A stretch of 50,145 nt of DNA. It comes from an uncultured Candidatus Saccharibacteria bacterium. Its GTDB lineage: Bacteria; Patescibacteriota; Minisyncoccia; Phycocordibacterales; UBA918. Positions 28,208 through 28,769 of the stretch are shown piece after piece. The notes beneath the pieces are model-generated. The model searched no databases. It had not been told where the DNA came from and was given only the letters and a program-made list of their open reading frames with translations. Position numbers and translations under genes: made by a program. The stretch's first letter is position 1. Every line of letters starts with the position of its first letter. The stretch lies in contig CAZSZB010000003.1 in assembly GCA_964611205.1 (NCBI GenBank), forward strand, positions 89,764 through 139,908, read 5' to 3'.

Positions 28208-28769
28208 AAAGCCTGGCCTGCGCCAGGCTTTGTCGTTGTCCGAGGCGGAGCGTTGTGAGGTGAGAAAGTACCAAAGTACTTTCGCAAGACTTTTTGTGAT
28301 TTTTCATATGAAAAATCCAAAAGGTTTACCGTTCCTGTAAGGAAGGACTTTGTCCCGTCCCGACGAACCGCGAGCCGGGGTCGAGAGTACTAAGTAAAAT
28401 CTGCACAAAGTGCAGATTTTACTTAGTAACTCGTGACGACAAAGACAGAAGATTTCTTAGAAAACTTCTAGGGACTGACTAGTGTCAGTTCCGGCCGCTG
28501 CCCGCGGCGGAGACATGTTTTCAATTCTTTCTCCTAGAATTGAAAACAGTCGAGCCGGGTGAGAACGTCTGGGGGACGTTCGCAAGAGGTTGACTAGTAT
28601 TTTGAAGAATAAAAAATACTGACAACCTGAACAGAATCTGTATGATTCGCGAATACTTAGTAAAATCTGTACAGAGTGCAGATTTTACTTAGTAATTCGT
28701 GAGAACAGCAACAAAAATAAAGAAGAGGTGATACAAAAGACCGCTAGCTTTGCCAGCGGTCTTTTGTAT
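28208..28769. repeat. Dense array of modular hairpins (REP/BIME-like or structured RNA) between rplB and rpsF
   Basis: More than 10 hairpins; 19-bp stem tactaagtaaaatctgcac/gtgcagattttacttagta repeated at about 28388 and 28654; modules shared with 6041-6107 and 45656-45771. Confidence 0.8.
28731..28769. terminator. Bidirectional terminator closing the hairpin array
   Basis: atacaaaagaccgct...agcggtcttttgtat. Confidence 0.7.

Follow-up and report, generated by a model that had tools for sequence, protein, structure and literature searches.

What is the hairpin with a GGA/GA internal loop that recurs behind ribosomal protein genes in this DNA, and how did it come to lie there? The window, by which we mean the whole analysed stretch of 50,145 nt, contains three intergenic blocks that are exceptionally structured, with folding z-scores of -17.4 behind rplB (28140-28780), -13.0 behind rplL (45590-45840) and -13.0 behind rplK (5995-6330). 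An earlier sequence-only reading had described three copies of the GGA/GA hairpin in the window, and its strings were all found exactly where it had placed them: GGCGGAGCG at 28244 with CGCGAGCC at 28369 (copy 1), GGCGGAGAC at 28506 with GTCGAGCC at 28549 (copy 2) and GGCGGAGCC at 45656 with GGCGAGCC at 45698 (copy 3), together with the junction GAGCCGrGGTCGmGAGTACTwAGT at 28372 and 45701. The hairpin forms the base of module A in a two-hairpin core of ~105 nt, ordered as module A, a GGG linker and module B. The proposal that the copies enclose different cargo holds for copy 1, the only one with extra nested modules, and fails for copies 2 and 3, which have one hairpin in common (85-87% identical). 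Family modules were also said to follow rplK, rplB and rplL. This was correct for rplB and rplL, while the rplK site carries a D core without the GGA/GA module; the D core of the rplK site is also nested within the copy at 28244-28376.

The blocks are composed of cassettes of ~150-300 nt, which are non-coding and non-autonomous. Each begins with the gene end (T), followed in most cases by a terminator-like hairpin and then by an inverted T (T'), the core and a second direct T. T duplicates the final 4-75 nt of a conserved gene, and the second T begins exactly at the 3' edge of the core. The most informative features of these elements are the duplicates of the gene end and the inverted copy derived from the target, both missed by the sequence-only reading. 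The rplB block reads as follows.

27301..28179 (+): rplB (L2), the target gene (Pfam; translation), live end ...GGQRQKISKK*
28208..28231 (+): hairpin resembling a terminator, placed between T and T'
28229..28242 (+): T' of the rplB cassette (TTTGTCGTTGTCCG, the complement of CGGACAACGACAAA in the gene)
28244..28376 (+): module A, enlarged (GGC-GGA-GCG ... CGC-GA-GCC), with nested modules C (~28259-28289) and D (28290-28342)
28380..28436 (+): module B, copy 1 (58.8 bits in the covariance model, at 28362-28438)
28437..28460 (+): displaced rplB end 1, RQRQKIS* (CGA CAA AGA CAG AAG ATT TCT TAG)
28506..28556 (+): module A, copy 2 (GGC-GGA-GAC ... GTC-GA-GCC; from its strings and the covariance model)
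28558..28587 (+): module C, copy 2 (GTGAGAA-hairpin-TTCGCAAG)
28647..28702 (+): older module B (36.2 bits; 83% identity with copy 1)
28703..28720 (+): displaced rplB end 2, EQQQK* (GAA CAG CAA CAA AAA TAA)
28731-28769 (+): real rplB terminator, after displaced end 2

Displaced end 1 encodes the same residues as the live QRQKIS with five synonymous codon differences, and module A copy 2 is part of an older, partly decayed cassette. The exact tails RQRQKIS* and EQQQK* were found in none of 120 L2 homologues, and the displaced L2 tails are related but partly decayed alleles. The L2 tail that forms the site of T, ...GKVMG(G/N)QRQKI(S/A)KK (28138-28179), is a ~10-aa extension present in the closest relatives only (P0001-P0033); Paceibacteria L2 proteins mostly end in ...RRKVGKRR or ...RKPGKLMRGNK, and the L2 relatives nearest to that of the window are from Kaiserbacteria/Paceibacterota. 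The rplL block contains a single cassette.

45113..45631 (+): rplL (L7/L12), the target gene (Pfam), live end ...AKVELK* (TAG)
45633..45655 (+): T' of the rplL cassette (TTTAAGTTCTACCAAGCTCCAGG), which pairs as a hairpin with the final ~24 nt of rplL
45656..45705 (+): module A (GGC-GGA-GCC ... GGC-GA-GCC; from its strings and the covariance model)
45709..45769 (+): module B (the whole core, 45656-45770, scores 95.5 bits)
45770..45793 (+): displaced rplL end, EAKVELK* (GAA GCT AAG GTA GAA CTT AAA TAA)
~45804-45837 (+): original rplL terminator, after the displaced end

The longest rplL ORF has 172 aa with the Pfam domains beginning at residue 56, and the true start probably lies ~150 nt downstream of 45113. 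At rplK the same layout is built around the D-type core.

5603..6025 (+): rplK (L11), the target gene (Pfam L11 N and C domains; translation)
6008-6025 (+): T1, the last 18 nt of rplK (GGTATAGAAGTAGTCTAA = GIEVV*)
6026..6037 (+): T1', the inverted rplK end (ACTACTTCTATA); the resulting hairpin spans the stop codon
6038..6102 (+): D-type core, unit 1 (CTTTTGTGAT-hairpin-ATCCAAAAGG-TGTACAGTCCCTGTAA; 95-nt tandem repeat)
6103..6197 (+): second unit, consisting of T2 (GGGATTGAAGTAGTCTAA = GIEVV*), T2' and a D-type core
6198..6226 (+): T3 and T3', the oldest displaced rplK end (GGGATCGAAGTGGTTTAA = GIEVV*)

The inverted repeat 6010-6021/6026-6037 is 100% complementary, and each GIEVV* copy has its own T', including T3, whose inverted copy matches perfectly. 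T3 carries four differences from T1 and three from T2, every one at a synonymous third codon position. A strain that is 99.9% identical upstream (L001) carries one D unit behind rplK where the window has two, and its identity falls to 89.7% from the right-hand T onward, placing a recombination boundary at the element.

As a control, we scored T' pairing across 42 gene ends of the window. T' was present at three of them, the element sites only: the rplL T' had the highest score of all (16.5), and rplB 28149-28162 paired with its T' at a score of 13, against a control 95th percentile of 8. Hairpins spanning stop codons as a general habit of this genome were thereby rejected, as the three element sites alone stood out. 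Among the elements collected below, T' paired better with the left T than with the right T in 44 of 45, and it reaches 2-6 nt past the start of the right T.

For copies outside the window, we performed an exact scan with the junction, with its variable positions loosened and one genome kept per species. The 24-nt A-B junction was detected in 43 contigs from ~35 Patescibacteria MAGs, at 1-3 exact copies per genome, in Paceibacterota, Yonath-, Nomura- and Kaiserbacteria, Minisyncoccia and MAGs labelled Saccharibacteria; in metagenomes, a search pattern restricted to module B matched at least 119 contigs. Other genomes contain modules A, B, C/E, D and F again, in agreement with the earlier proposal of a modular family, and other core types (D and several unnamed ones) have the identical T/T'/core/T layout; the D core stands in a T'-core-T layout behind tRNAs in L035 and L124 (L numbers denote loci outside the window). 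Module E, a 7-8-bp hairpin whose conserved loop reads (A)ACTGCTT (e.g. AGAAAGCAAACTGCTTTGCTTTCG), is located just 5' of module A in L009, L013, L025, L028, L030, L044, L052 and others, where it often divides T' into two parts, one complementary to the acceptor and one to the T arm; module C of the window looks related to module E. Module F (GGTCTCGACnnnAGGGAGAGG) lies immediately 5' of the right-hand tRNA-end copy in two genomes, at tRNA-Leu and tRNA-Lys (L020, ~3930-3965 and 4300-4330; L032, minus strand, ~3450-3910). Several such elements also stand behind tRNAs on a contig (L008, JBLHQB010000003.1) of a MAG labelled Patiriisocius (Flavobacteriaceae), which is probably a mis-binned Patescibacteria contig.

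A search of the window against Rfam 15 matched the 23S rRNA only. Permissive thresholds over 28100-28800 returned nothing beyond generic hairpin noise (E>0.05), and tRNA, tmRNA and rRNA were the only Rfam matches in 15 element loci. The junction had no match in viral contigs, giving no sign of a phage origin. We found no description of such elements in the literature, the coverage of which is incomplete and hence no proof of novelty. The family is widespread among candidate-phyla-radiation bacteria and apparently undescribed.

We then examined the insertion targets, which comprised tRNA genes (from the T-loop or from the 3' end), tmRNA, topA, rplB, rplL and rplK. A tRNA or tmRNA gene lay directly upstream on the same strand in 35 of the genome copies and in 73 of 88 evaluable metagenome copies (~83%), the latter spanning 17 tRNA specificities and tmRNA, both among the matches listed. 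Protein-gene targets were topA in L019, L022, L126, L141 and L166; rplL in the window, L099 and L123; rplB in the window and L052; and rplK in the window. Placement is therefore non-random, behind conserved, highly expressed genes, as had been proposed from the window in the form of a preference for 3' ends of highly expressed genes. At tRNA targets, the right-hand copy starts at T-loop position 56 (CGAxTCC...) or comprises the last few nucleotides (CACAAA); from T-loop C56 the right flank matches the tRNA 3' end, forming a direct repeat on both sides of the element, with a boundary between the end of module B and T such as GTGAC|CGATTC. In a short-T class the duplication is just 4-7 nt (CACAAAC), too short for ordinary homologous recombination.

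The covariance that first drew attention to the hairpin was confirmed at family scale. The loop consensus is 5'-C-G-N-A-R / 5'-Y-G-A-G, and both flanking stems covary. In 44 copies from ~35 genomes, the inner three base pairs were paired in 94.7% of cases with four Watson-Crick types at two positions; none of 500 shuffles reached this pairing score, and slid registers paired at 19-33%. The loop was indeed conserved and the inner stem compensatory, but the outer stem, which had been described as invariant, is not: family-wide its only fixed pair is the loop-adjacent C-G, and the other two pairs covary (GC/CG/AU/UA). Module B covaries too, keeping a G.U wobble in 41 of 42 genome copies. We also analysed 91 distinct metagenome copies, picked among the matches listed by module B only and without reference to module A. 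Here 95.3% of cells were paired and 21 of 28 pairs showed compensatory changes, against ~30% pairing in slid registers, all in an alignment that was fitted to the model and thus favours its structure; the loop was G/A-N-A opposite G-A in ~95% of copies, and the G.U wobble was kept in 81 of the 91.

The structure also distinguishes the two strands. A covariance model built from 42 cores scored the seed cores at 70-110 bits on the gene-sense strand compared with ~20 on the other, and it detected ~20 more diverged copies within the same loci. The gene-sense strand folded better in 42 of 46 cores. Together with the covariation and the conserved G.U wobble, this bears out the idea of a selected single-stranded motif, and selection acts on the gene-sense single-stranded fold. 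Further copies thus exist, are not randomly placed and retain both covariation and strand asymmetry, the points on which the sequence-only reading had said it could fail. Hairpin tips were enriched for R-N-A triloops closed by C-G, and GC(G/A)NAGC tips, which we take to be the classic very stable DNA mini-hairpin, were observed 19 times where 1.3 were expected. The loop types lean toward DNA over RNA, with the terminator loops serving as an RNA control that is weak at n=5.

The loop context C-G-N-A-G / C-G-A-G matches that of tandem sheared G.A pairs, as in r(GGCGAGCC)2, plus one bulged base; the closing pairs and purines of the tandem sheared G.A motif are the same as those of the family loop. 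The GGC/GCC stem with GA recalls the C-stem side of the Kt-7 kink-turn. A kink-turn, however, has a 3-nt bulge followed by G.A/A.G, whereas the family loop is 3 x 2 with one bulged nucleotide, and a kink-turn reading of GGA/GA was ruled out by the covariation, which puts G7-C and the next two pairs in register and leaves G-N-A / G-A.

The displaced gene ends carry further information about history. In L052, the two rplB ends read NQRQNIAKK* and DQRQNIAKK*, with seven synonymous differences in nine codons, and T' matches the live allele in a locus with three generations of cassettes. In-frame copies of ~75 nt occur at topA in L019 and L022, and the rplL ends of L123 read TVELK* and TVEFK*. Stacked arrays are found at rplB in the window, in L052 and in L020. 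The differences are so heavily synonymous that both copies must have evolved as coding sequence, and the simplest reading of these sequences is that a cassette arrived with its own diverged allele of the gene end. At topA in three species, the stop-hairpin-T' segment and the C-terminal allele were conserved together, while the right-hand copies represented another allele. T' and the core are linked to the left-hand allele. The tract of left/right identity ended at ~0, 48 and 63 nt in the three topA insertions, and these variable crossover points would fit homologous exchange within T, not a fixed-site recombinase. Cores at different targets in one genome share their B hairpin (0.85 vs 0.62, p = 2e-4), which could be due to gene conversion and need not mean movement. 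The independent reassortment of modules A and B shows that copies frequently exchange at the conserved junction and fits gene conversion equally well.

From this pattern, we consider it probable that the GGA/GA hairpin is module A of small, non-autonomous cassettes of Patescibacteria that capture gene ends and spread together with the gene-end allele. Such a cassette would sit in the 3' end of a gene, where its own T completes the gene and the previous end is pushed downstream and decays. Cassettes would move between strains and species with the gene-end allele by recombination within T, and we infer this mobility from the sequences compared. In one route, incoming DNA might be exchanged by homology, the gene body and the right-hand T acting as the two arms; in the other, a small circular or folded single strand might insert by a single crossover. 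The right-hand T would provide a conserved homology arm beyond the element in otherwise non-conserved intergenic DNA, which would explain the choice of highly conserved genes as targets. The T/T' hairpin and the tandem G.A loops may be recognised in single-stranded DNA, less likely in RNA, by a trans-acting host factor encoded away from the cassettes. The right-hand tRNA copies of L026, L031, L041 and L036 are truncated or altered; they are not intact resident ends, and later decay has to be assumed for them.

The order T - x - T' - core - T would also be the expected product of a folded single-stranded donor and a duplex target joined by one strand exchange. It is conceivable, and we put this forward only tentatively, that a protein-free, single-strand-folding cassette copies the target 3' end as T' and T at each insertion. 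If this were true, target-copying insertion would repair the interrupted gene and flank the cassette with conserved homology for further spread. It would be a target-templated insertion without known precedent, in which a host or trans-acting enzyme would recognise the tandem-G.A loops, and the cassettes would be a major shaper of tRNA loci in Patescibacteria.

An alternative that we judge unlikely is a cis-acting RNA beneficial to the host (a 3'-trailer or 3'-UTR stabiliser, a terminator, a processing signal or a protein-binding site) that spread by ordinary homologous recombination as a useful sequence and not as a mobile one. The sense-strand structure, the covariation and the conserved G.U are as expected of such an RNA, and the element is always co-oriented and directly behind an expressed gene. 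The rplL gene has no terminator ahead of the core, which must therefore be co-transcribed, and the element is conserved across deep lineages with few copies, as functional RNAs typically are. This explanation, however, leaves the second gene end after the core, its diverged allele and the stacked generations unaccounted for. Most tRNA sites have a strong U-tract terminator ahead of T' and core, which would leave these poorly transcribed, and R-N-A triloops dominate rather than GNRA or UNCG tetraloops.

RNA could also have been the intermediate: a terminator hairpin would self-prime synthesis from T into T', a template switch of a polymerase or reverse transcriptase to core RNA would follow, and the chimera would recombine into the gene. 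We regard this as improbable. The targets are the most abundant transcripts (tRNA, tmRNA and ribosomal protein mRNAs), T-hairpin-T' is one long palindrome tipped by a terminator, and an extension of T' 2-6 nt beyond the start of the right T is what copy-back of variable length would give. No reverse transcriptase was found near the elements, however; T' contains trailer sequence but no CCA, and the step adding the right-hand T is ad hoc.

Direct repeats of tRNA 3' ends together with tmRNA targets are the classic signature of tyrosine-integrase islands, and the cassettes could be attachment-site scars (attL + attR) left by internally deleted islands. The repeats that start from the T-loop or the 3' end, the tmRNA targets and the replacement gene end provided by the element all agree with this origin, and of the features of tRNA-targeting elements the direct repeat and the restored gene are present, whereas an integrase and a fixed crossover are not. 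Independent scars would not converge on one covarying core of ~105 nt across lineages, a target-specific inverted T' is foreign to such scars, no integrase lay within +-4 kb in 162 loci, and crossover positions vary, making this origin very improbable.

There is hardly any chance that the modules are REP/BIME-like repeats mobilised by the RAYT at 40002-40694, one candidate mobiliser in the sequence-only reading. In its favour, the hairpins are irregular and fold on a single strand, as needed by HUH Y1 enzymes, and the window encodes a Y1 transposase-like protein (PF01797, 27 bits). Against it, the four hairpins (CCTTAGTCWGACTAAGG) around the RAYT are its own and unrelated to modules A-D, a RAYT-like gene occurs in one of 174 element-bearing loci (1.02 Mb) and the RAYT hairpin in none of them, REPs lack the target duplication that is seen here at nearly every copy, and low copy number with sequence conservation across classes is unlike species-specific REPs. 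The gene itself is of the IS200-like Y1 RAYT type and is bracketed by four copies of a 26-nt hairpin (TTATCCCTTAGTCTGACTAAGGGATA and variants), two on each side (39904-40802), which occurs nowhere else in the window.

Among 1128 neighbouring ORFs in 162 loci, no transposase, integrase or reverse transcriptase was enriched, and the recurrent families were housekeeping ones only, as they were in a first set of 43 loci. In the window itself we found no tyrosine recombinase; it encodes RecA, RecO, SSB and FtsK. FtsK is present as two overlapping ORFs (33759-35995, minus strand), one at 34460-35995 with four TM segments, the alpha domain and part of the motor, the other at 33759-34487 (-) with the gamma domain and the remainder of the motor; the split could be a frameshift, a sequencing error or real. 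An ORF of ~540 aa with a serine-recombinase-like N-terminus (..YTRKSTDTEDRQ..) adjoins tRNA genes in three loci, among them L014 (4497-6128, minus strand), too few for an association. Two further observations concern other genes of the window: the isoleucyl-tRNA synthetase (13765-17304, plus strand) has a His_Phos_1 domain inserted at residues 527-703, inside its class I catalytic domain, and the ORF at 47568-48125 (-) is spurious, lying within the 23S rRNA gene (47138-end).

The suggestion that the elements mark breakpoints of ribosomal protein operons did not stand. The usual target is a tRNA or tmRNA gene, and a relative whose L2 is 89% identical (L053) shares the rplB|rpsF-ssb-rpsR junction but carries a plain terminator there, without any element, which means that the break predates the element or is independent of it. 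In locus L049, rplB...rpsS is retained; it contains an unrelated insert of 1.2 kb, and the site is empty. The elements are therefore not the cause of the breaks. Assemblies break systematically at the cassettes behind such genes; short-read Logan contigs from other samples with identical L11 and L2 (L002-L005) stop 18-88 nt past the stop codon, within cassettes.

Patescibacteria have tiny genomes and few recognised mobile elements, yet a large share of their tRNA genes, tmRNA and several essential protein genes carry stacked cassettes. If spread with the gene-end allele is confirmed, the cassettes would represent a horizontal route by which essential genes have their 3' ends rewritten without damage, and would account for the frequent assembly breaks behind such genes. 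They would also make available a deeply conserved structured motif and natural, datable layers of past insertions for studies of recombination in uncultured lineages, and the target-derived inverted copy would point to an undescribed insertion chemistry.

Among the known systems compared, MITEs do not match, as the repeats on either side, inverted and direct, are specific to the target, and the duplication, 4 to ~75 nt, is set by the distance to the gene end. Palindromes derived from IS200/IS605 share irregular hairpins with the cassettes but do not match either, with targets here that are long, variable and duplicated and no Y1 or TnpB enriched nearby. An integron attC or gene cassette was rejected for want of a conserved GTTRRRY and of a tyrosine recombinase, none being found in the window or enriched in the loci. 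BIMEs/REP and pneumococcal BOX elements resemble the cassettes as short intergenic hairpin modules that are reordered, lie after genes and are transcribed with them; they are, however, species-specific, present in high copy and leave the adjacent gene end unduplicated, whereas the cassettes have few copies per genome and conservation at class level. Free-standing homing-endonuclease insertions with a duplicate C-terminus of the gene, as in fungal mitochondrial atp6, share the imported 3' end, the resident pseudo-end downstream and spread through flanking homology; the cassettes differ in having no endonuclease or ORF, in being bacterial and in having RNA genes as main targets. Integron attC sites and CTX-phi attP share the topology of recombination with a folded strand, selection of structure on one strand and unpaired or extrahelical bases, and integron arrays share the placement of the newest unit next to the attachment point. 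Unlike attC and CTX-phi, the cassettes have no conserved R/L boxes (GTTRRRY), no intI or dif in the window or loci and no cargo ORF, and their paired arms are target-derived and different at each locus. Integrative islands of tRNA and tmRNA genes (tyrosine-integrase type) and their non-autonomous derivatives, CIMEs, likewise insert at the T-loop or 3' end, supply a replacement 3' end that keeps the gene intact, leave the old end as a direct repeat and, in the case of the islands, accrete in tandem. In contrast to these islands, the cassettes measure 150-300 nt and have no gene, no integrase nearby and a variable crossover; they combine a conserved single-strand-folding core with a target-specific T' and also target the ends of protein genes.
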